From NCBI RefSeq assembly GCF_003334335.1, contig NZ_QOWQ01000003.1: a stretch of DNA of 64,000 bases, one strand, 5' to 3'. The stretch is from Escherichia coli. Its GTDB lineage: Bacteria > Pseudomonadota > Gammaproteobacteria > Enterobacterales > Enterobacteriaceae. Each line of letters opens with the position of its first letter. Position 1 is the first letter of the stretch. Below the pieces are notes generated by a model, which was not told the DNA's origin, did not search any database, and saw nothing but the letters and a program-made list of their open reading frames with translations. A program made the translations under genes and the position numbers. This document shows positions 12,667 to 33,494 of the stretch, piece after piece.

Positions 12667-12802
12667 ACATTTTTCCGCTTCGCTACCTCGCCCCTCACTC
12701 TTTCCAATAATGTTGCACAAGATACTGTGACTCTCTTCAAGCCGTCAGCAGGCTGATAATGTTATTTATATTTTATTGTTTATTTCATGCAGCCATTACA
12801 CG

Positions 12803-19383: not shown

Positions 19384-20535
19384 ATGGATTTTTCTTTAAA
19401 TGAAGAACAAGAACTGCTGCTGGCCAGTATTCGCGAACTGATTACGACTAACTTTCCGGAAGAGTATTTCCGCACCTGCGATCAAAACGGGACATATCCG
19501 CGTGAGTTTATGCGGGCGCTGGCGGATAACGGTATTTCCATGCTTGGCGTGCCGGAAGAATTTGGTGGTATCCCTGCGGATTACGTCACCCAAATGCTGG
19601 CGCTGATGGAAGTGTCAAAATGCGGTGCTCCGGCATTTTTAATTACCAACGGTCAATGTATTCACAGTATGCGCCGTTTCGGTTCTGCAGAGCAGCTACG
19701 TAAAACGGCAGAGAGCACCCTGGAAACGGGTGATCCCGCCTATGCCCTGGCGTTGACGGAACCAGGTGCTGGCTCAGATAACAACAGTGCCACTACCACT
19801 TACACGCGTAAAAACGGCAAGGTCTACATCAACGGACAAAAAACCTTTATTACCGGTGCGAAAGAGTACCCGTATATGCTGGTGCTGGCGCGCGATCCGC
19901 AACCGAAAGATCCCAAAAAAGCCTTCACCCTGTGGTGGGTCGACTCCAGTAAGCCCGGCATTAAGATTAACCCGCTGCATAAAATCGGCTGGCATATGCT
20001 CAGCACCTGCGAAGTCTATCTCGACAACGTGGAGGTTGAAGAGAGCGACATGGTGGGCGAAGAAGGAATGGGTTTCCTCAATGTGATGTACAACTTTGAG
20101 ATGGAGCGCCTGATCAACGCCGCGCGCAGCACCGGCTTTGCCGAATGCGCCTTTGAAGATGCCGCCCGCTATGCCAACCAACGTATCGCTTTTGGTAAGC
20201 CCATTGGTCATAACCAGATGATCCAGGAAAAACTGGCGCTGATGGCGATTAAGATCGACAACATGCGCAACATGGTGCTGAAAGTGGCATGGCAAGCCGA
20301 TCAGCATCAGTCACTGCGCACCAGCGCGGCGCTGGCAAAACTGTACTGTGCACGTACCGCAATGGAAGTCATTGATGATGCGATTCAAATCGTGGGCGGT
20401 CTGGGCTATACCGATGAGGCGCGCGTCTCCCGCTTCTGGCGTGATGTCCGTTGTGAACGTATCGGCGGCGGTACAGACGAAATTATGATTTACGTAGCAG
20501 GTCGGCAGATCCTGAAAGACTATCAGAACAAATAA
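19384..20535 (+). CDS. ydiO: Acyl-CoA dehydrogenase family protein (CaiA-like)
   Basis: ORF track opens at 19330; AGGAG ribosome-binding site precedes the ATG pair at 19381/19384 (MDFSLNEEQ), giving 383 aa; acyl-CoA dehydrogenase fold. Confidence 0.9.
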   Translation: MDFSLNEEQELLLASIRELITTNFPEEYFRTCDQNGTYPREFMRALADNGISMLGVPEEFGGIPADYVTQMLALMEVSKCGAPAFLITNGQCIHSMRRFGSAEQLRKTAESTLETGDPAYALALTEPGAGSDNNSATTTYTRKNGKVYINGQKTFITGAKEYPYMLVLARDPQPKDPKKAFTLWWVDSSKPGIKINPLHKIGWHMLSTCEVYLDNVEVEESDMVGEEGMGFLNVMYNFEMERLINAARSTGFAECAFEDAARYANQRIAFGKPIGHNQMIQEKLALMAIKIDNMRNMVLKVAWQADQHQSLRTSAALAKLYCARTAMEVIDDAIQIVGGLGYTDEARVSRFWRDVRCERIGGGTDEIMIYVAGRQILKDYQNK

Positions 20536-20577
20536 TCTGCAGGCGGCGCAGCTTCTTAACAAACTGCGCCGCCAGAT

Positions 20578-21489
20578 TTATCCAACAAGACTTACCGGTT
20601 GAGGAAATTCAGATAGGATTTCTTGTTCCGCAAAACAGTTTTTAAATTGTCTACGGTAATCGCTGGGCGAACAACCGACATGGCGCAAAAACAGTTTGGC
20701 AAAGTGATCGACATTTTCATAACCCACACGCCAGGAGATCTCTGCCTGTGATAATTCAGTATTAGTGAGTGACCATTTTGCTTCCGTCATACGCCGTTGA
20801 ATAACATAGTTAATAGGGGAAATACGATACTCTTTGGTAAATTCATGGCAAATATAACTGACGCTGGCACGAAATTTTTTCGATAACTGTTCTAAAGTGA
20901 TTTTTTCGCGATAATTATTATTCAGATAGAAAAGAATATCTTTTATCAGAACATCTTTTTTAATATACCCCTGCTCCGAACGATAAGCATTTTTAAAATT
21001 TTCGTAGTAAAGAATGGCTAACGTATAGGCAAATGCATCCCATAACGAAGATGTTTGGCTATTTTTACTTTGCGGCAAAATCACACTTAGCTCATTAAAT
21101 AAGGTTTTTATGACTTCTTTTCCCTGCCCCGCGGCAATTACCGGACAAGAATGCGGTTGCAGTAGCTGATTTTCCTCAGCCCCCTGAAACTGAAAGCCGT
21201 ACAGCGCACAGGTACACGTCGTTGCCGGATCGTTAACGTCAGAGGCCACCGCATGCAGCCTGCCGCGTTCTATCACCACAATGTCATCCGCATGTGCGAC
21301 ATATAACGAAGAATCGATGGTAAACCTTGCAACCCCTTTCTTGACGTAAATCAACTCGGTTTCATTGTCATGAACGTGATGTCCGGACTCCCATTTTGGA
21401 TCATCGCTAAATGCAAAACGTGAAAGCCGTGGCGTTTTACCGGCGACAAACAGCGTTTCACTGGCGTTATCAAAACAGCGTTGATACAT
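20578..21489 (-). CDS. ydiP: AraC/XylS-family transcriptional regulator YdiP
   Basis: 303-aa ORF with cupin-like N-terminus and C-terminal AraC helix-turn-helix; divergent from ydiQ. Confidence 0.85.
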   Translation of the reverse strand: MYQRCFDNASETLFVAGKTPRLSRFAFSDDPKWESGHHVHDNETELIYVKKGVARFTIDSSLYVAHADDIVVIERGRLHAVASDVNDPATTCTCALYGFQFQGAEENQLLQPHSCPVIAAGQGKEVIKTLFNELSVILPQSKNSQTSSLWDAFAYTLAILYYENFKNAYRSEQGYIKKDVLIKDILFYLNNNYREKITLEQLSKKFRASVSYICHEFTKEYRISPINYVIQRRMTEAKWSLTNTELSQAEISWRVGYENVDHFAKLFLRHVGCSPSDYRRQFKNCFAEQEILSEFPQPVSLVG

Positions 21490-21804
21490 GACAACCTCCC
21501 TATTCCATGAGCAAGCAAAAACAATATATGCCGGATAAAATACGGCGTGTATTGCGGTTATACAACCGCGTTTAGCGAGAGCTAAACAAGATTATTTACA
21601 CTGAATGCAAGATTGTACGGTCATGGAATAACTATATTGCCGCAAATTGCACTTTTGTTTTAGCGATCGCATTTTTTTTGCAAGATTGTTGGCAAGGAAA
21701 ACAGCTTGCTCCGTCGAAAACCCCGCACCGCTATCGCACACTATTTTCAGGCCATTTTTACCTTCCATCGGAGATGGTTCCGTATGCGACTCACAGGAGA
21801 AATC

Positions 21805-22569
21805 ATGAAAATAATAACCTGCTTTAAGCTGGTGCCTGAAGAACAGGACATTGTTGTCACTCCAGAATACACCCTGAATTTCGACAATGCCGACGCCAAA
21901 ATCAGCCAGTTCGATCTCAATGCCATTGAAGCTGCAAGCCAGCTCGCAACAGATGACGATGAGATAGCCGCGCTGACCGTTGGCGGCTCATTGTTGCAGA
22001 ACTCGAAAGTGCGCAAAGACGTGCTATCCCGCGGGCCGCACAGCCTGTATTTGGTGCAGGATGCGCAACTTGAACATGCACTGCCTCTCGATACCGCAAA
22101 AGCGCTGGCGGCAGCAATTGAAAAGATCGGCTTCGATTTACTGATCTTTGGTGAAGGTTCCGGCGACCTTTATGCCCAGCAGGTTGGCTTGCTGGTCGGA
22201 GAAATTCTGCAACTTCCGGTGATTAATGCAGTGAGTGCTATTCAGCGTCAGGGCAATACACTGGTGATTGAACGCACGCTTGAAGATGATGTTGAAGTTA
22301 TTGAACTCTCTGTTCCAGCCGTGCTCTGCGTCACCTCCGATATTAACGTGCCACGCATTCCTTCGATGAAAGCCATTCTCGGCGCGGGTAAAAAACCGGT
22401 AAATCAGTGGCAGGCAAGTGATATTGACTGGAGCCAGAGCGCGCCACTTGCTGAACTGGTCGGCATTCGCGTACCGCCGCAAACAGAACGTAAGCACATC
22501 ATTATCGATAACGATTCGCCGGAGGCCATTGCCGAGCTGGCGGAACATCTGAAGAAAGCCCTGAACTGA
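21805..22569 (+). CDS. ydiQ: Electron transfer flavoprotein beta subunit (FixA-like)
   Basis: ORF track opens at 21706; true start at MKIITCFKLVPEEQD after an AGGAG ribosome-binding site (254 aa). Confidence 0.9.
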   Translation: MKIITCFKLVPEEQDIVVTPEYTLNFDNADAKISQFDLNAIEAASQLATDDDEIAALTVGGSLLQNSKVRKDVLSRGPHSLYLVQDAQLEHALPLDTAKALAAAIEKIGFDLLIFGEGSGDLYAQQVGLLVGEILQLPVINAVSAIQRQGNTLVIERTLEDDVEVIELSVPAVLCVTSDINVPRIPSMKAILGAGKKPVNQWQASDIDWSQSAPLAELVGIRVPPQTERKHIIIDNDSPEAIAELAEHLKKALN

Positions 22570-22588
22570 AGCCTACGGAGAAGAAACG

Positions 22589-23527
22589 ATGAGTCAATTA
22601 AACAGCGTCTGGGTCTTTAGCGATAATCCTGAACGTTATGCTGAACTGTTTGGCGGCGCTCAGCAATGGGGCCAACAGGTGTATGCCATTGTACAAAATA
22701 CCGACCAGGCGCAGGCAGTTATGCCTTATGGTCCAAAATGTCTTTATGTTCTTGCGCAAAACGACGCGCTGCAACGCACTGAAAATTACGCCGAAAGCAT
22801 TGCTGCCCTGCTGAAAGATAAACACCCCGCTATGTTGCTGTTGGCCGCGACGAAACGTGGTAAAGCGCTGGCAGCACGGTTAAGTGTGCAACTGAATGCG
22901 GCGCTGGTGAACGATGCCACGGCGGTGGATATTGTCGATGGTCACATTTGCGCCGAACACCGGATGTATGGCGGGTTAGCGTTCGCTCAGGAAAAGATCA
23001 ACAGCCCGCTGGCGATCATTACCCTTGCACCCGGTGTTCAGGAACCGTGCACCAGTGATACCTCTCATCAGTGCCCGACAGAAACGGTACCTTATGTTGC
23101 TCCGCGTCATGAAATTCTCTGTCGCGAACGCCGTGCGAAAGCCGCAAGCAGCGTGGACCTGAGCAAAGCAAAACGTGTGGTTGGCGTCGGTCGTGGACTG
23201 GCGGCGCAGGATGACCTAAAAATGGTCCACGAACTGGCGGCGGTGCTGAATGCTGAAGTCGGCTGTTCACGTCCAATTGCCGAAGGCGAGAACTGGATGG
23301 AGCGTGAACGTTATATCGGTGTCTCCGGCGTGTTGCTGAAATCCGATCTCTACCTGACGCTGGGGATCTCCGGGCAGATCCAGCATATGGTTGGCGGCAA
23401 CGGCGCAAAAGTGATTGTCGCCATCAATAAAGATAAAAATGCGCCAATCTTCAACTATGCCGACTACGGTCTGGTGGGCGATATCTACAAAGTCGTCCCT
23501 GCCCTGATTAGCCAGTTGAGCCGCTAA
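22589..23527 (+). CDS. ydiR: Electron transfer flavoprotein alpha subunit (FixB-like)
   Basis: 312-aa ORF; ETF alpha FAD-binding C-terminal domain. Confidence 0.9.
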   Translation: MSQLNSVWVFSDNPERYAELFGGAQQWGQQVYAIVQNTDQAQAVMPYGPKCLYVLAQNDALQRTENYAESIAALLKDKHPAMLLLAATKRGKALAARLSVQLNAALVNDATAVDIVDGHICAEHRMYGGLAFAQEKINSPLAIITLAPGVQEPCTSDTSHQCPTETVPYVAPRHEILCRERRAKAASSVDLSKAKRVVGVGRGLAAQDDLKMVHELAAVLNAEVGCSRPIAEGENWMERERYIGVSGVLLKSDLYLTLGISGQIQHMVGGNGAKVIVAINKDKNAPIFNYADYGLVGDIYKVVPALISQLSR

Positions 23528-23582
23528 TTCCCCTTTCAACCACATCTCCCGCTGTAAACGCAGCGGGAAGGGAGCATAACGC

Positions 23583-24872
23583 ATGTCGGATGACAAATTT
23601 GATGCCATTGTGGTCGGTGCGGGCGTTGCTGGTAGCGTTGCCGCACTGGTCATGGCACGAGCCGGGCTGGATGTCCTGGTGATAGAACGCGGCGACAGTG
23701 CCGGATGTAAAAACATGACCGGCGGGCGTCTTTATGCCCACACACTTGAAGCAATCATTCCAGGCTTTGCAGTATCAGCGCCGGTAGAACGCAAGGTCAC
23801 ACGCGAGAAAATCTCCTTCTTAACCGAAGAAAGCGCCGTTACCCTCGATTTTCACCGCGAGCAGCCAGATGTTCCGCAACACGCATCTTATACCGTATTG
23901 CGTAATCGTCTGGACCCGTGGTTGATGGAACAAGCCGAGCAGGCGGGCGCGCAGTTTATCCCAGGCGTTCGCGTCGACGCGCTGGTTCGTGAAGGAAACA
24001 AGGTCACTGGCGTGCAGGCTGGGGATGATATTCTCGAAGCGAATGTGGTGATTCTGGCTGATGGCGTTAACTCGATGCTTGGCCGCTCGCTGGGAATGGT
24101 TCCCGCTTCCGATCCGCATCATTACGCTGTTGGTGTTAAAGAGGTTATTGGCCTCACACCAGAACAGATCAACGATCGCTTTAATATTACGGGCGAGGAA
24201 GGTGCCGCCTGGCTGTTTGCCGGTTCCCCTTCTGACGGCCTGATGGGCGGGGGATTTCTCTATACCAACAAGGATTCCATATCCTTGGGGCTGGTTTGTG
24301 GATTGGGTGATATCGCCCATGCGCAAAAAAGCGTGCCGCAAATGCTGGAAGATTTTAAACAACACCCCGCCATTCGCCCGCTGATTAGCGGCGGCAAACT
24401 GCTTGAATATTCCGCGCATATGGTGCCGGAAGGCGGTCTGGCAATGGTGCCGCAACTGGTTAACGAGGGCGTGATGATCGTTGGTGACGCCGCAGGCTTC
24501 TGCCTGAATTTGGGTTTTACGGTCCGCGGCATGGATTTAGCCATTGCATCGGCTCAGGCTGCCGCCACAACGGTGATCGCCGCCAAAGAACGCGCGGATT
24601 TCTCCGCCAGCAGTCTGGCGCAATACAAACGTGAGCTGGAACAAAGCTGCGTCATGCGTGATATGCAGCATTTTCGCAAGATCCCGGCGCTGATGGAAAA
24701 CCCGCGCCTGTTTAGCCAATACCCACGAATGGTAGCCGACATCATGAACGAGATGTTCACCATCGACGGCAAACCAAACCAGCCGGTACGAAAAATGATC
24801 ATGGGACATGCGAAGAAAATTGGGCTGATCAACTTGCTGAAAGATGGCATTAAGGGAGCAACCGCGCTATGA
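23583..24872 (+). CDS. ydiS: FAD-dependent oxidoreductase (ETF-quinone oxidoreductase / FixC-like)
   Basis: 429-aa ORF with N-terminal FAD dinucleotide-binding motif VVGAGVAGS. Confidence 0.9.
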   Translation: MSDDKFDAIVVGAGVAGSVAALVMARAGLDVLVIERGDSAGCKNMTGGRLYAHTLEAIIPGFAVSAPVERKVTREKISFLTEESAVTLDFHREQPDVPQHASYTVLRNRLDPWLMEQAEQAGAQFIPGVRVDALVREGNKVTGVQAGDDILEANVVILADGVNSMLGRSLGMVPASDPHHYAVGVKEVIGLTPEQINDRFNITGEEGAAWLFAGSPSDGLMGGGFLYTNKDSISLGLVCGLGDIAHAQKSVPQMLEDFKQHPAIRPLISGGKLLEYSAHMVPEGGLAMVPQLVNEGVMIVGDAAGFCLNLGFTVRGMDLAIASAQAAATTVIAAKERADFSASSLAQYKRELEQSCVMRDMQHFRKIPALMENPRLFSQYPRMVADIMNEMFTIDGKPNQPVRKMIMGHAKKIGLINLLKDGIKGATAL

Positions 24873-25162
24873 GCCAGAACGCTACGGTTAACGTCGACAT
24901 CAAATTAGGCGTCAATAAATTCCATGTTGATGAGGGCCACCCGCATATCATTCTGGCGGAAAATCCCGATATCAATGAATTCCATAAATTAATGAAAGCC
25001 TGCCCTGCCGGACTTTATAAGCAGGATGACGCAGGAAACATTCATTTTGATTCCGCCGGTTGTCTGGAGTGCGGCACCTGTCGGGTGCTGTGCGGTAACA
25101 CTATTCTCGAACAGTGGCAATATCCCGCAGGCACCTTCGGTATTGATTTTCGCTACGGCTAA
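24869..25162 (+). CDS. ydiT: Ferredoxin-like protein (FixX-like)
   Basis: 97-aa ORF with Cys motif CLECGTCRVLC; start overlaps the ydiS stop (ATGA). Confidence 0.88.
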   Translation: MSQNATVNVDIKLGVNKFHVDEGHPHIILAENPDINEFHKLMKACPAGLYKQDDAGNIHFDSAGCLECGTCRVLCGNTILEQWQYPAGTFGIDFRYG

Positions 25163-25218
25163 TCATGCATCCCACAGGCCCGCATCTCGGGCCTGATGTT
25201 CTGTTTCGAGAGTCCAAC

Positions 25219-26865
25219 ATGAAAGTGACATTAACGTTTAACGAACAACGTCGTGCGGCGTATCGTCAGCAAGGGTTATGGGGCGATGCTTCGCTGGCCG
25301 ATTACTGGCAGCAGACCGCTCGTGCGATGCCAGACAAAATTGCCGTGGTCGATAATCATGGTGCATCGTACACCTATAGCGCGCTCGATCACGCCGCGAG
25401 CTGTCTGGCAAACTGGATGTTAGCGAAGGGTATTGAATCAGGCGATCGCATCGCATTTCAACTGCCTGGCTGGTGTGAATTTACCGTTATCTATCTTGCC
25501 TGCCTGAAAATCGGTGCAGTTTCCGTGCCGCTGTTGCCTTCCTGGCGGGAAGCAGAACTGGTGTGGGTGCTCAATAAGTGTCAGGCAAAAATGTTCTTTG
25601 CACCGACGTTGTTTAAACAAACGCGTCCGGTAGATTTAATCCTGCCGCTGCAAAATCAGCTTCCACAACTACAACAAATTGTCGGCGTGGACAAACTGGC
25701 TCCCGCCACCTCTTCCCTCTCATTAAGTCAGATTATCGCCGACAATACCTCACTGACCACGGCGATAACGACCCACGGCGATGAATTAGCTGCGGTGCTG
25801 TTTACCTCCGGAACCGAGGGTCTGCCAAAGGGCGTGATGCTAACGCATAACAATATTCTCGCCAGTGAGCGGGCTTATTGCGCGCGACTGAATCTGACCT
25901 GGCAGGATGTCTTTATGATGCCTGCGCCACTTGGTCACGCAACGGGCTTTCTGCATGGCGTAACGGCACCATTCTTAATTGGCGCTCGCAGCGTGTTGTT
26001 AGATATTTTCACTCCTGATGCGTGTCTCGCGCTGCTTGAGCAGCAGCGTTGCACCTGTATGCTCGGCGCAACGCCGTTTGTCTATGATCTTTTGAATGTA
26101 CTAGAGAAACAACCCGCGGACCTTTCAGCGCTGCGTTTCTTTCTTTGCGGCGGAACCACAATCCCCAAAAAAGTGGCGCGTGAATGCCAGCAGCGCGGCA
26201 TTAAATTATTAAGTGTTTATGGTTCCACAGAAAGTTCGCCGCATGCGGTGGTGAATCTCGATGATCCTTTGTCGCGCTTTATGCACACCGATGGTTACGC
26301 TGCCGCAGGTGTAGAGATTAAAGTGGTCGATGACGCACGCAAGACCTTACCGCCAGGTTGCGAAGGTGAAGAAGCCTCGCGTGGCCCCAATGTGTTTATG
26401 GGGTATTTTGATGAACCTGAATTAACCGCCCGTGCCCTGGATGAAGAAGGCTGGTATTACAGCGGCGATCTCTGCCGTATGGATGAGGCTGGCTATATAA
26501 AAATTACCGGACGCAAAAAAGATATTATTGTCCGCGGCGGCGAAAATATTAGCAGCCGTGAAGTGGAAGATATTTTATTGCAGCATCCTAAAATTCACGA
26601 TGCCTGTGTGGTTGCAATGTCCGATGAACGTTTAGGTGAACGATCATGCGCTTATGTCGTGCTGAAAGCGCCGCATCATTCATTATCGCTGGAAGAGGTA
26701 GTGGCTTTTTTTAGCCGTAAACGGGTCGCAAAATATAAATATCCTGAACATATCGTGGTAATCGAAAAACTACCGCGAACTACCTCAGGTAAAATACAAA
26801 AGTTTTTGTTAAGAAAAGATATTATGCGGCGTTTAACGCAGGATGTCTGTGAAGAGATTGAATAA
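25219..26865 (+). CDS. fadK: Short-chain acyl-CoA synthetase (AMP-forming)
   Basis: Adenylate-forming enzyme motifs (TSGTEGLPKGV). ORF track opens at ATG 25165 (566 aa), 2 nt after the ydiT stop; I chose the internal MKVTLTFNEQ start (548 aa) but cannot exclude 25165. Confidence 0.9.
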   Translation: MKVTLTFNEQRRAAYRQQGLWGDASLADYWQQTARAMPDKIAVVDNHGASYTYSALDHAASCLANWMLAKGIESGDRIAFQLPGWCEFTVIYLACLKIGAVSVPLLPSWREAELVWVLNKCQAKMFFAPTLFKQTRPVDLILPLQNQLPQLQQIVGVDKLAPATSSLSLSQIIADNTSLTTAITTHGDELAAVLFTSGTEGLPKGVMLTHNNILASERAYCARLNLTWQDVFMMPAPLGHATGFLHGVTAPFLIGARSVLLDIFTPDACLALLEQQRCTCMLGATPFVYDLLNVLEKQPADLSALRFFLCGGTTIPKKVARECQQRGIKLLSVYGSTESSPHAVVNLDDPLSRFMHTDGYAAAGVEIKVVDDARKTLPPGCEGEEASRGPNVFMGYFDEPELTARALDEEGWYYSGDLCRMDEAGYIKITGRKKDIIVRGGENISSREVEDILLQHPKIHDACVVAMSDERLGERSCAYVVLKAPHHSLSLEEVVAFFSRKRVAKYKYPEHIVVIEKLPRTTSGKIQKFLLRKDIMRRLTQDVCEEIE

Positions 26866-26889
26866 GTTTCATCTTCGGGGATCACATAA

Positions 26890-26930
26890 CCCCGGCGACT
26901 AAACGCCGCCGGGGATTTATTTTATTTCTT
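26890..26930 (+). terminator. Intrinsic terminator downstream of fadK (between convergent fadK and ppsA)
   Basis: Hairpin CCCCGGCG...GCCGCCGGGG followed by ATTTATTTTATTTC on the plus strand. Confidence 0.6.
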
Positions 26931-29300
26931 CAGTTCAGCCAGGCTTAACCAGGTTTGCACCACGGTGTCCGGGTTCAGAGACAGGCTATCGATCCCCTCT
27001 TCCATCAACCATGCGGCAAAGTCTTCGTGGTCGGACGGACCCTGACCGCAAATCCCGACATATTTGCCCTGTTTCTTCGCGGCACGGATAGCCATCGACA
27101 GCAGTGCTTTCACCGCATCGTTGCGCTCATCGAACAATTCAGACACCACGCCGGAGTCACGGTCCAGACCGAGCGCCAGCTGCGTCATATCGTTTGAGCC
27201 AATTGAGAAGCCGTCGAAATATTCGAGGAACTGCTCGGCCAGCAAGGCGTTGGACGGGATTTCACACATCATGATGATTTTCAGCCCGTTCTCGCCACGT
27301 TTCAGCCCCTGACGCGCCAGTTCTTCAACCACCGCTTTCGCCTGATCTACGGTACGCACGAACGGGATCATGATCTCAACGTTGGTCAGTCCCATGTCGT
27401 TGCGCACACGTTTCACTGCTTCACACTCCAGCGCGAAACAGTCGCGGAAGCTGTCGGAAACATAGCGGCCCGCGCCACGGAAGCCGAGCATCGGGTTCTC
27501 TTCATCTGGCTCGTAACGCTCACCACCGACCAGGTTGGCATATTCGTTCGATTTAAAATCAGAGAGACGGACAATGACGCGCTTCGGATAAAACGCGGCA
27601 CCCAGCGTCGCGATCCCTTCAGTCAGACGACCAACGTAAAATTCACGCGGAGAATCAAAACCTTTCATCATCTCGCGGATTTCGTTTTGCAACTGCGGTT
27701 CCTGATCGTCAAACTCAAGCAGTGCGCGTGGGTGGACGCCAATCATACGGTTGATGATAAATTCCAGACGCGCAAGGCCCACGCCTTCGTTCGGTAGGCA
27801 GGCGAAGTCGAAAGCACGGTCCGGGTTACCGACGTTCATCATCACTTTCAACGGCAGATCCGGCATCGTTTCTACGCTGGAGCTTTTCACGCTAAATTCC
27901 AGCAACTCCGCATAGACGTAACCGGTATCACCTTCGGCACAAGAAACAGTGACGTTCTCACCGTCTTTCATCCGTTCTGTTGCATCTCCACAGCCCACTA
28001 CCGCCGGAATGCCCAGTTCACGAGCGATGATCGCCGCGTGACAGGTACGACCGCCACGGTTGGTGACGATGGCAGATGCTTTCTTCATGATCGGTTCCCA
28101 GTCCGGGTCGGTCATGTCAGTAACCAGCACGTCGCCAGGTTCGATGCGGTTCATTTCGCTGATGTCATGGATGACTTTCACCGGACCCGCACCGATGCGA
28201 TGACCGATAGCACGGCCTTCGGCGATAATCTTACCCTGTGAATGCAGCGTATAACGCTCCATGACCTGACCGCGTGAGCGCACGGTTTCCGGACGCGCCT
28301 GCACAATGAACAGTTTACCGGTGTGGCCATCTTTCGCCCACTCAATATCCATCGGGCGACCGTAGTGTTTCTCAATTTGTACGGCCTGTTTTGCCAGTTC
28401 CTGCACTTCTTCGTTGGTCAGCGAGAAGATGTCACGCTGTTCCTGCGGTACGTCTTCGATTTTAACCTGCTTGCCGTGCTCCTGGGTCGGCGCGTAAACC
28501 ATGCGGATTTTTTTCGACCCCATGGTGCGGCGCACGATAGCCGGGCGATTCGCCGCCAGTGTCGGTTTATGCACGTAAAACTCATCCGGGTTAACCGCAC
28601 CCTGCACGACCATCTCACCAAGGCCCCATGCGGAAGTGATAAACACCACCTGGTCAAAGCCGGATTCGGTATCAATGGAGAACATCACGCCAGATGATGC
28701 GAGGTCAGAGCGCACCATCCGTTGAACACCGGCGGAGAGCGCCACACCACGGTGATCGTAACCCTGGTGCACACGATAAGAGATGGCGCGATCGTTAAAC
28801 AGAGAAGCAAATACATGTTTCACTGCCACGAGAACGGCGTCAAAACCCTGAACGTTGAGGAAGGTTTCCTGCTGACCGGCAAAAGAAGCGTCCGGCATAT
28901 CTTCTGCGGTGGCGGAGGAGCGCACCGCAAAAGAGGCGTTTTCGTCATCGGCGGAAAGCTGTGCATAGGCTTCGCGGATGGCGTTTTCCAGCTCAGGCTG
29001 GAAGGGAGTGTCGATAATCCACTGGCGGATTTGCGCGCCCGCTTTCGCAAGCTGAGTAACATCGTCAATATCCGTTTTATCCAGCAGTTCATAAATGCGC
29101 TGGTTTACGCCGCTTTGGTCCAGAAACTGGTTAAACGCGTCGGCGGTTGTGGCGAAACCATTCGGAACGGAAACACCCATTCCGGAAAGATTAGTAATCA
29201 TTTCACCCAGGGAGGCATTTTTGCCCCCAACCCTGTCTACATCATTCATGCCGAGTTGGTTATACCAAAGCACCAGCGGTGACGAGCCATTGTTGGACAT
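26922..29300 (-). CDS. ppsA: Phosphoenolpyruvate synthase
   Basis: 792-aa ORF; PEP-utilising enzyme family. Confidence 0.97.
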
Positions 29301-29386
29301 CGAACAATCCTTTTGTGATAAATGAACGGTTTGAGAAACACATTTCTGCGCATTTATCTTTGCATATTTAACCGGATGAAAAAAAC

Positions 29387-29402
29387 GGTGAATCGTTCAA
29401 GC
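29387..29402. promoter_or_regulatory. Putative Cra (FruR) operator in the ppsA promoter
   Basis: GGTGAATCGTTCAAGC in the ppsA-ppsR divergent spacer resembles the Cra consensus GCTGAAAC/GTTTCAGC; ppsA is a known Cra-activated gene. Confidence 0.45.
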
Positions 29403-29632
29403 AAATATATTTTTTTACTTTTTAAGACTGATCCCAGCGTTGCGCAAATCTGCTCTCTTCGACAATTTCCACATAAACCATCGGTATAAACGAAACCATA
29501 AAAATGAAATGCTGTTTTCATAAAAAATAAAATTGAAGGTTCATTTTATAAACCAGACATAACGTTCTACGCTTCTGTGCGTTTTTAATTTATGCTTTCA
29601 TAGAATTATGTCTGCATCACGGGAAGAACAAA

Positions 29633-30466
29633 ATGGATAATGCTGTTGATCGCCACGTTTTTTATATTTCTGATGGTACGGCAATAACTGCGGAGGTATT
29701 AGGACACGCAGTAATGTCACAATTTCCCGTCACTATCAGCAGCATCACGCTGCCGTTTGTCGAAAATGAGAGCCGTGCACGGGCAGTGAAGGATCAGATT
29801 GACGCAATTTATCACCAGACAGGCGTGCGCCCGCTGGTCTTCTACTCCATCGTGTTGCCGGAGATTCGCGCCATCATCTTGCAAAGTGAAGGCTTTTGCC
29901 AGGATATCGTTCAGGCGCTGGTTGCCCCGCTACAACAAGAGATGAAACTGGATCCAACGCCGATTGCTCATCGTACCCATGGCCTTAACCCTAATAATCT
30001 CAATAAATATGATGCGCGCATTGCGGCGATTGATTACACCCTCGCCCACGATGACGGCATTTCGTTGCGCAATCTGGACCAGGCTCAGGTGATCCTGCTC
30101 GGTGTTTCTCGCTGTGGTAAAACCCCCACCAGTCTGTATCTGGCAATGCAGTTTGGTATCCGCGCGGCAAACTACCCCTTTATTGCCGACGATATGGATA
30201 ATCTGGTGCTACCCGCGTCGCTCAAACCGCTTCAGCATAAATTGTTCGGCCTGACTATCGACCCGGAACGTCTGGCGGCGATTCGCGAGGAACGTCGGGA
30301 GAACAGTCGCTATGCCTCGCTTCGTCAGTGCAGGATGGAAGTCGCGGAAGTGGAAGCCTTGTACCGTAAAAATCAGATCCCGTGGATTAACAGTACCAAT
30401 TATTCGGTAGAAGAGATTGCCACCAAGATCCTCGATATCATGGGCCTTAGTCGCCGAATGTACTAG
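29633..30466 (+). CDS. ppsR: PEP synthase regulatory protein (bifunctional kinase/pyrophosphorylase)
   Basis: 277-aa ORF with P-loop GVSRCGKT; divergent from ppsA. Confidence 0.93.
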
Positions 30467-30477
30467 AGAACTAGTGC
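30460..30477. promoter_or_regulatory. TrpR operator of aroH
   Basis: GTACTAGAGAACTAGTGC contains the palindromic Trp repressor operator core ACTAGAGAACTAGT; overlaps the ppsR TAG stop, about 150 nt upstream of the aroH ATG. Confidence 0.7.
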
Positions 30478-30622
30478 ATTAGCTTATTTTTTTGTTATCA
30501 TGCTAACCACCCGGCGAGGTGTGACACACCTCGCACTTGAAATCAGCAGCGATTGGTTTATCGTGATGCGCATCACTTCCCGGCAGTCCTGCCGTAGAAG
30601 CAACAAATTTCTGAGACTTGTA

Positions 30623-31669
30623 ATGAACAGAACTGACGAACTCCGTACTGCGCGTATTGAGAGCCTGGTAACGCCCGCCGAACTCGCGCTACGGTATCCC
30701 GTAACGCCTGGCGTCGCCACCCATGTCACCGACTCCCGCCGCAGAATTGAAAAAATACTGAATGGTGAAGATAAGCGACTGTTGGTCATTATTGGCCCCT
30801 GCTCGATCCACGATCTCACCGCTGCAATGGAGTACGCCACCCGTCTGCAGTCGCTGCGCAACCAGTACCAGTCACGGCTGGAAATCGTAATGCGCACCTA
30901 TTTTGAAAAACCACGAACTGTTGTCGGCTGGAAAGGACTAATCTCCGATCCAGATTTAAACGGCAGCTATCGGGTAAATCACGGTCTGGAGCTGGCGCGC
31001 AAATTACTTTTACAGGTAAATGAGCTGGGCGTCCCAACCGCGACCGAGTTCCTCGATATGGTGACCGGTCAGTTTATTGCTGATTTAATCAGTTGGGGCG
31101 CGATTGGCGCACGTACTACCGAAAGTCAGATCCACCGCGAAATGGCTTCGGCACTCTCCTGTCCGGTAGGTTTTAAAAATGGTACCGATGGCAATACGCG
31201 GATTGCTGTGGATGCTATCCGCGCAGCCCGCGCCAGCCATATGTTCCTCTCGCCAGACAAAAATGGTCAGATGACCATCTATCAGACCAGCGGCAACCCG
31301 TATGGCCACATTATTATGCGTGGCGGCAAAAAACCGAATTATCATGCCGATGATATCGCCGCAGCCTGCGATACGCTGCACGAGTTTGATTTACCTGAAC
31401 ATCTGGTGGTGGATTTCAGCCACGGTAACTGCCAGAAGCAGCACCGTCGCCAGTTAGAAGTTTGTGAGGATATTTGTCAGCAAATCCGCAATGGCTCTAC
31501 GGCGATTGCTGGAATTATGGCGGAAAGTTTCCTGCGCGAAGGAACGCAAAAAATCGTCGGCAGTCAGCCGCTCACTTACGGTCAATCCATTACCGACCCG
31601 TGTCTGGGCTGGGAGGATACCGAACGCCTGGTCGAAAAACTCGCCTCTGCGGTAGATACCCGCTTCTGA
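30623..31669 (+). CDS. aroH: DAHP synthase, Trp-sensitive
   Basis: ORF track opens at 30500 (389 aa); start set at MNRTDELRTARIESL (348 aa). Confidence 0.95.
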   Translation: MNRTDELRTARIESLVTPAELALRYPVTPGVATHVTDSRRRIEKILNGEDKRLLVIIGPCSIHDLTAAMEYATRLQSLRNQYQSRLEIVMRTYFEKPRTVVGWKGLISDPDLNGSYRVNHGLELARKLLLQVNELGVPTATEFLDMVTGQFIADLISWGAIGARTTESQIHREMASALSCPVGFKNGTDGNTRIAVDAIRAARASHMFLSPDKNGQMTIYQTSGNPYGHIIMRGGKKPNYHADDIAAACDTLHEFDLPEHLVVDFSHGNCQKQHRRQLEVCEDICQQIRNGSTAIAGIMAESFLREGTQKIVGSQPLTYGQSITDPCLGWEDTERLVEKLASAVDTRF

Positions 31670-31684
31670 ATGCGTGCCCATTCC

Positions 31685-31714
31685 TGACGGAATGGGCATT
31701 TCTGCGCAACTTGT
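31685..31714 (+). terminator. Intrinsic terminator after aroH
   Basis: Hairpin TGCCCATTCC-TGAC-GGAATGGGCA followed by TTTCTG. Confidence 0.55.
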
Positions 31715-31759
31715 TGTCTTCTCAACAAATTACTGCTTGCTCTGGTCAGCCATAATATT

Positions 31760-31780
31760 GATAATAAGAATCATTGTTAT
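31760..31780. promoter_or_regulatory. Fur box upstream of ydiE
   Basis: GATAATAAGAATCATTGTTAT just upstream of the ydiE start; good match to the Fur consensus. Confidence 0.6.
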
Positions 31781-31800
31781 ATCAATTATTATTAATTTTT

Positions 31801-31992
31801 ATGCGTTATACGGATAGCAGAAAACTCACGCCTGAAACGGATGCCAATCACAAGACCGCTTCCCCGCAGCCTATTCGGCGAATTTCCAGCCAGACACTGT
31901 TAGGTCCGGATGGCAAACTGATTATCGATCATGACGGGCAAGAATATCTGCTCCGTAAAACTCAGGCTGGCAAGCTGCTGTTGACCAAGTAG
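31801..31992 (+). CDS. ydiE: HemP-like small protein
   Basis: 63-aa product from internal ATG (MRYTDSRKL); HemP/HmuP-like; Fur box upstream. Confidence 0.8.
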
Positions 31993-31995
31993 CCT

Positions 31996-33471
<1,476 letters not shown>

Positions 33472-33494
33472 TTAAACACCAGCAAACAGAAGGG

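Follow-up and report, generated by a model that had tools for sequence, protein, structure and literature searches.

The gene ydiE (b1705, also annotated as hemP) is found on the plus strand at positions 31801-31992 of a 64,000-nucleotide stretch of Escherichia coli DNA, the whole of which was analysed and is referred to here as the window. It begins with an ATG at 31801, ends with a TAG at 31992 and encodes 63 amino acids. The genes ppsR (29633-30466) and aroH (30623-31669) precede it, while selO, also called ydiU (31996-33432), ydiV, also called rflP (33495-34208), and then nlpC follow on the minus strand. The spacer between aroH and ydiE contains a terminator hairpin behind aroH, a promoter and a Fur box at 31760-31778. 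RefSeq mostly gives the gene product the name "hemin uptake protein HemP", with the MG1655 entry reading "PF10636 family protein YdiE".

The window DNA is K-12-like: its first 50 kb differ from MG1655 (NC_000913.3, from 1757813) at 11 positions, none of which falls within 20393-35483. Published data given in the older NC_000913.2 coordinates can be placed on the window by subtracting 1755836, a conversion fixed by the published start-site table. Of 5426 complete E. coli genomes, 5423 contain the 1-kb stretch around ydiE. Orthologues were collected from one genome per species, which gave 12 usable loci and, together with the window, a set of 13 sequences. The 12 loci come from Escherichia (four, covering divergent E. 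coli genomes, an Escherichia sp. and E. whittamii), Citrobacter (six) and two subspecies of Salmonella, and the order ppsR-aroH-ydiE-selO-ydiV is identical in all of them and in the window. A further ydiE sequence, 100% identical to that of E. coli, was found on a 417-bp contig with a coverage of 0.8 that is labelled Streptomyces sp. NTH33, and this is almost certainly E. coli contamination of that assembly.

The YdiE protein

YdiE is a true member of the HemP/HmuP family by its sequence, its motifs, its size of 63 aa and its fold. The first-pass annotation, made from the letters of the DNA, had called the ORF HemP/HmuP-like, and the Pfam family PF10636 (hemP) does match it with E=3.1e-15, residues 27-63 aligning with all 37 positions of the model. 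The NCBIfam equivalog NF007559 scores 136 bits with a cutoff of 77, and the protein is identical to PDB entry 4YNX, deposited as "Structure of YdiE from E. coli". The family is characterised by a C-terminal His and Tyr, which have been proposed as haem ligands, and by a KLILxK tail. In YdiE these correspond to His44 and Tyr49, both invariant in 18 aligned homologues, and to the C-terminal KLLLTK formed by residues 58 to 63. In an alignment with RPA2121 (PDB 2JRA), all three features fall on its His, Tyr and KLILTK; this is a distant relative of low overall similarity, for which phmmer returns E=0.06.

The two halves of the protein are of different character, with a disordered, fast-evolving N-terminal part and a strongly constrained, three-stranded C-terminal part. 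The HemP domain (residues 27-63, encoded at 31879-31989) consists of three beta strands, for which AlphaFold gives a pLDDT of 87-95, compared with values below 50 for residues 5-18; in 4YNX only about 40 residues are ordered. Among the 13 orthologues, the last 38 residues include 28 that never vary, and the first 22-25 residues are almost unrelated. Synonymous codon changes far exceed non-synonymous ones, for example 22 against 5 in the comparison with C. sedlakii.

Searches by structure returned significant matches to 4YNX, 2LOJ and, weakly, 2JRA only, and no DNA- or RNA-binding fold from outside the family of YdiE was matched. A word-based protein search found relatives only in Escherichia, Salmonella, Citrobacter and Phytobacter, and the match of YdiE to PHROGs was insignificant.

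The Fur box upstream of ydiE

The primary Fur box, GATAATAAGAATCATTGTT at 31760-31778, agrees with the 19-bp consensus GATAATGATAATCATTATC at 15 of 19 positions, and its 3' end lies 22 nt from the ATG of ydiE. This bears out the earlier description of a strong Fur box just upstream of a 63-aa ORF. A second register, AATATTGATAATAAGAATC at 31754-31772, overlaps it with a shift of 6 bp and is a weaker match (14/19, 11.6 bits). Across the 64 kb, agreement of 15/19 or better occurs three times, once at the ydiE box and twice in the overlapping pair at sufA (6615 and 6621). A consensus search that tolerated up to three mismatches returned the sufA box as the sole match in the window and missed the ydiE box because the latter carries four.

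For the weight-matrix scoring which the first-pass annotation had proposed, a symmetrised 19-bp matrix was built from the best site in each of 12 established Fur-regulated intergenic regions of MG1655 (fepA-fes, fepD-entS, fepB-entC, fhuA, fiu, cirA, tonB, exbB, fecI, fhuE, feoA and fhuF), with ydiE and suf excluded. The ydiE box scores 15.64 bits and ranks second over all positions of the window, behind sufA with 16.77 bits. Training sites, when each was left out in turn, score between 7.2 and 20.5 bits, which places the ydiE box in the middle of the range. The significance of the score depends on the background chosen: a value of 15.64 bits or more occurs somewhere in 11.5% of dinucleotide shuffles of the whole window, in 0.18% of shuffles of the 131-bp aroH-ydiE spacer (local p=0.002) and in 1% of shuffles of the spacer core, which is 82% A+T. 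The matrix score by itself is suggestive and not decisive, and the case for the box rests beyond it on position and conservation.

These numbers also bear on a different explanation of the site, namely that the box is a chance match in an AT-rich promoter which is in truth controlled by H-NS or simply set by its own strength. Besides the composition of the core and the 1% of its shuffles that score as well, this explanation can draw on genomic SELEX, in which H-NS was reported for the aroH-ydiE spacer and the promoter was classed as "constitutive", and on matrix matches of 13-14 bits elsewhere in the window, such as those at 12755 and 60533, that are without ChIP support.

Conservation does not agree with a chance match. 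In all 13 loci the best upstream Fur site is found at the homologous position, with scores of 15.2-17.5 bits. A 21-bp core, ATTGATAATAAnAATCATTGT, is invariant across the 13 orthologues except for the single variable base n, and is thus kept over three genera while its flanks have diverged and contain insertions and deletions. By comparison, the constrained C-terminal coding region of ydiE differs at 4-33% of its nucleotides in the same genomes. The second register is the second- or third-best upstream site in 10 of the 12 other orthologues (6.8-17.0 bits), and falls outside the top three in the locus L013.

Within E. coli, an 81-bp promoter segment was recovered from 5401 of the 5426 genomes with an identity of at least 90%. 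One natural disruption was found in strain 20220828076, where an IS1A element (at about 1720-2500 of locus L028) has inserted into the Fur box and duplicated a 9-bp target, TAAGAATCA, corresponding to window positions 31765-31773. This rare event parts the -35 and -10 elements from ydiE. The IS1 of strain NCCP 13717 was considered as another promoter insertion and rejected, as the element sits in selO.

Promoter and transcription start

The transcription start of ydiE was mapped by Kim et al. 2012 (PMC3415461) in MG1655 grown in M9 glucose, using 5' RACE-seq enriched for primary transcripts. Supplementary file 2 of that study lists it at NC_000913.2 1787609 on the plus strand, with 184 reads and a 5' UTR of 28 nt, and the upstream sequence printed there ends in ...GATAATAAGAATCA. 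This start is an A at window position 31773. It follows that the primary Fur box covers -13 to +6 and that the second register covers -19 to -1.

The mapped start is consistent with a -10 hexamer GATAAT at 31760-31765, which agrees with TATAAT at five of six positions, ends 7 nt before +1 and is at the same time the first hexamer of the Fur box. A -35 hexamer TTGCTC is found at 31737-31742, 17 bp upstream of GATAAT, and also fits the mapped start. The Fur box therefore overlaps the core promoter, with the -10 hexamer inside it and +1 covered. When all -35/-10 pairs were enumerated, TTGCyn-17-GATAAT was the only one present in every sequence, and it has the same spacing in 13 of 13 orthologues. 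A generic promoter scan reported no plus-strand promoter for ydiE, since this promoter scores 8/12 and the threshold was 9/12; the same scan reported no terminator either. The supplements of the Cappable-seq work contain no entry at the ydiE locus.

Two other promoter arrangements were considered. The pair TTGATA-16-TATCAA, taken from the genomic SELEX work, was rejected: TATCAA is not conserved, and it is located downstream of the mapped start at 31773. The pair TTAACA-17-TATTAT, located 7 bp upstream of the E. coli promoter, matches at 10/12 in Citrobacter, and its -35 element has decayed to 2/6 in E. coli. It is connected with a block, ATTAnCACTTGC, that is conserved upstream of the box (31728-31741 and the orthologous positions); in Citrobacter and Salmonella this block gives a second and stronger promoter with up to 10/12 matches, the corresponding -35 in E. 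coli being TTACTG. Judged by these sequences, the start site of ydiE may differ between genera.

The ydiE transcription unit

Behind aroH, a hairpin of the form GCCCATTCC-TGAC-GGAATGGGC, followed by ATTTCT, occupies 31677-31699 on the plus strand. It folds with -21.4 kcal/mol (z=-4.0; none of 200 shuffles was as stable), and every orthologue retains the stem, with changes in both arms. In published wild-type expression data the signal of aroH is about 280 and that of ydiE about 10, a gap of about 25 times. The strength of the hairpin and this gap in signal indicate that ydiE is a transcription unit of its own.

The 5' UTR (31773-31800) has 2 G/C among its 28 nt (7% G+C) and no Shine-Dalgarno sequence, which is absent before the start codon in the orthologues as well. 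The first 78 nt of the mRNA fold more weakly than their shuffles (z=+1.65), 195 of 200 of which are at least as stable, and Rfam has no known RNA element in 31500-32200.

At its other end ydiE converges on selO, the two stop codons being 3 bp apart (31990-31998) with no recognisable terminator in between, and the pair appears in a published tool and list as a candidate excludon, that is, a pair with overlapping transcripts. Together with the poor T-run of the aroH terminator, this arrangement would suit a Fur site that acts chiefly on the neighbours, as a roadblock to read-through from aroH or by modulating the convergent selO, with ydiE being incidental. Such a role is very improbable given that ydiE has its own mapped start within the box, that aroH and selO respond only slightly to the loss of fur and in a direction which varies from strain to strain, and that the ydiE coding sequence is under clear selection at the level of a protein which has been crystallised.

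Regulation of ydiE by Fur

Published ChIP-exo data place Fur on the box. The MG1655 peak P53 (1787605-1787617) is flagged "R" for binding under iron-replete conditions only and maps to 31769-31781 of the window, which is -4 to +9 relative to the transcription start. The peak P67 of W3110 is its equivalent. In the literature surveyed no in vitro Fur footprint on the ydiE promoter was found, and Beauchene 2015 makes no mention of ydiE.

Among nine E. coli strains, ydiE is part of the core Fur regulon, and its expression is raised in the fur deletion mutants of eight. The log2 change between mutant and wild type is 2.87 in MG1655 (p=1.9e-14) and 8.14 in W3110, and 5.24, 2.91, 7.08, 3.20, 2.23 and 5.16 in the other six, corresponding to a derepression of 5- to 280-fold over the eight strains. 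It is also a member of both Fur iModulons. The homologue in Salmonella Typhimurium is derepressed 7.4-fold in a fur mutant. In iron-poor egg white ydiE is induced about 4-fold, and it is one of the genes that uropathogenic E. coli express more highly during urinary tract infection. The first-pass annotation had pointed to fur mutants and iron limitation as the places where its proposal of Fur control could be checked, and the published results from both agree with it: ydiE rises by 2.2-8.1 log2 units in eight of nine strains and about 4-fold when iron is poor, so that the contrary outcome, an absence of Fur-dependent regulation, is not what these data contain.

BL21 is the lone exception, as ydiE changes by -1.10 log2 in its fur mutant. 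The BL21 promoter differs from that of the window by one base, at 31756, which is 45 nt before the ATG and outside the primary box, and the fall is not accounted for by the promoter sequence. The ydiV gene of BL21(DE3) is annotated as frameshifted.

These data settle the case of the chance match controlled by H-NS or by promoter strength. A core that is kept over three genera, a peak on the box that is present only in iron-replete cells and the strong derepression in fur mutants all speak against it, and the ChIP-exo and fur-mutant results, already published, refute it; as an account of this site it has next to no credibility. Occupancy, iron dependence, transcription start and derepression are all taken from published experiments which were mapped onto the window.

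Other Fur sites in the window

The window was claimed to contain two separate iron-responsive units, suf and ydiE, and both hold. The suf operon (1062-6574, minus strand) carries an overlapping pair of Fur boxes at 6615-6639, 41-65 bp upstream of the sufA start at 6574. These match the consensus at 16/19 and 15/19, score 16.8 and 14.5 bits and take ranks 1 and 3 in the window, and the ChIP-exo peak P52 maps to 6637-6649 at sufA. The number of two is a minimum, because ydiV, 2.4 kb from ydiE, is also induced by iron deficiency and has Fur ChIP-exo peaks.

Expression of ydiV has been reported to rise up to 23-fold upon iron deficiency, with the mechanisms described as "unknown". The gene shows no derepression in fur mutants, and the YdiV protein is reported to inactivate Fur. 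A Fur-like box, GAGAATCTTTATCATTCTG, is located at 34175-34193 inside the start of this minus-strand gene (codons 6-12) and scores 12.9 bits. At the same place the score is 17.7 bits in E. coli E69, 16.4 in C. koseri and 15.4 in C. sedlakii, and 0.6 bits in Salmonella. As the box encodes the conserved residues L-(E/D)-N-x-Y-H-S, protein coding may explain its presence. The W3110 peak P68 maps onto this internal box; the MG1655 peak P54, bound both with and without iron, is about 110 bp upstream of it (34288-34318).

Two further matches to the matrix are found at 12755-12773 (13.6 bits, 30 bp upstream of ydiL) and at 60533-60551 (13.4 bits). No ChIP-exo peak of MG1655 coincides with either, and both are probably false positives, which mark the noise level of the matrix.

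A model of ydiE repression

The regulation of ydiE is already known in its parts, as its membership of the core Fur regulon, its start site, the Fur peak and the structure of the protein have all been published. The present analysis assembles these into a full anatomy of the gene: a -35 element, a -10 element within the Fur box, the +1, a leader without a Shine-Dalgarno sequence, a disordered N-terminus and a constrained HemP domain.

With high confidence, the site is a sigma-70 promoter repressed by holo-Fur which serves the single-gene transcription unit ydiE. A box that covers -13 to +6 and includes the -10 hexamer suggests classical promoter occlusion. Fe2+-Fur dimers bound to the overlapping registers would keep RNA polymerase off the -10 element and the +1, and once iron drops and Fur leaves, an mRNA with the AU-rich leader of 28 nt would be made and translated despite the missing Shine-Dalgarno sequence. 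The physical exclusion of the polymerase by bound Fur is the step that we infer here. Polymerase exclusion is the standard mechanism for Fur sites placed like that of ydiE. The first-pass annotation had spoken of a Fur box driving ydiE; Fur control holds, and "repressing" is the better word for it, since the -10 hexamer and the transcription start both fall within the box.

Function of YdiE and comparison with related systems

In the characterised members of the family the gene is linked to one for a TonB-dependent haem receptor or to an operon for hemin transport, as with hemPRSTUV of Yersinia, chuPRSTUV of Chromobacterium and the hmu clusters of rhizobia and Burkholderia. No haem receptor or transporter gene was found within 3 kb on either side of ydiE, in the window or at any of the 12 orthologous loci, so that linkage to a cluster of the hemR/chuA and hemSTUV type is not a feature of ydiE. 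The name "hemin uptake protein" is unsupported by gene context.

The name could nevertheless be correct if Fur control is real and YdiE is literally a hemin-uptake component that serves the chu/shu haem system where a strain has one and is idle in K-12. Apart from the PGAP name "hemin uptake protein HemP", the place of Yersinia hemP as the first gene of hemPRSTUV and the requirement for HemP/HmuP proteins in the expression of haem receptors in several bacteria are compatible with this. It is an unlikely role all the same, since nearly every complete E. coli genome (5423 of 5426) has the gene. These presumably include K-12-type strains, which are without chuA. Salmonella has ydiE as well and is described as not using host haem, and the gene always has aroH and selO as its neighbours and never a receptor gene. 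The strong purifying selection in lineages that have no dedicated haem system argues for another or a wider role. YdiE is probably not a transport component.

An alternative is suggested by its relatives. The HmuP proteins of Ensifer meliloti and Bradyrhizobium japonicum and the HemP proteins of Burkholderia multivorans and Stenotrophomonas maltophilia belong to the same family and are small regulators of genes for TonB-dependent receptors, and some characterised members bind haem. By analogy with them and with ChuP, for which haem binding and control of a TonB-dependent receptor gene are likewise known, YdiE may be a small cytoplasmic haem-binding regulator or adaptor which tunes iron-acquisition genes in trans, an assignment that is tentative and that we would put somewhat below an even chance. 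The mechanisms reported for the relatives disagree: they include direct transcriptional activation, post-transcriptional activation via a HmuP-responsive element in the 5'-UTR, which has been reported to be absent from gammaproteobacteria, and, in Stenotrophomonas, repression. For this reason the reading is kept to the general form of a small, probably haem-binding, trans-acting regulator or adaptor which iron limitation induces.

One published experiment connects YdiE with a receptor. In a screen by overexpression, BL21 became strongly resistant to the phages T5 and CEV2, for which FhuA is the receptor, when it received genomic fragments that include ydiE. The authors of the screen listed ydiE beside feoB and suggested increased Fur repression of fhuA. 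The resistance hints that FhuA or iron status is affected, and is the opposite of the effect expected if extra copies of the box titrated Fur. A more specific proposal is that YdiE is an orphan HemP-family regulator, freed from a haem operon and acting in trans on the expression of siderophore receptors or on the iron-sensing circuit; under iron limitation it could, for example, lower FhuA. This proposal is quite unlikely. If it is true, the fixed place of ydiE 2.4 kb from ydiV, whose product is reported to inactivate Fur, might not be accidental.

A comparison with known systems shows which parts of ydiE are shared and which are its own. The hemP of Yersinia enterocolitica (in hemPRSTUV) and the chuP of Chromobacterium violaceum (in chuPRSTUV) likewise encode small PF10636 proteins with the His, the Tyr and the KLILxK tail, and are transcribed from Fur-repressed promoters. 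Both lead operons for haem receptors and transport, in contrast to ydiE, which stands alone with no iron-transport neighbour. The ydiE of Salmonella Typhimurium (STM1346, PDB 2LOJ) is much closer, with the same position between aroH and selO, the same Fur box (15.9 bits), the 7.4-fold derepression in a fur mutant and a C-terminal domain in which 33 of 38 residues are identical. It differs in the N-terminal 22-25 residues, where 4 of 22 are identical, and in a distance from box to start codon that is 9 nt longer. At the level of the promoter, ydiE resembles the canonical holo-Fur promoters of E. coli (fhuF, fepD-entS, fepB-entC, cirA and fiu) in its 19-bp inverted repeat of the GATAAT type, in the overlapping registers, in the location of the box on the core promoter and in the binding of Fur only when iron is replete, and its 15.6 bits are mid-range. 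The one peculiarity of ydiE is the double use of the first GATAAT in the box, which also serves as the -10 hexamer; otherwise there is no difference of substance.
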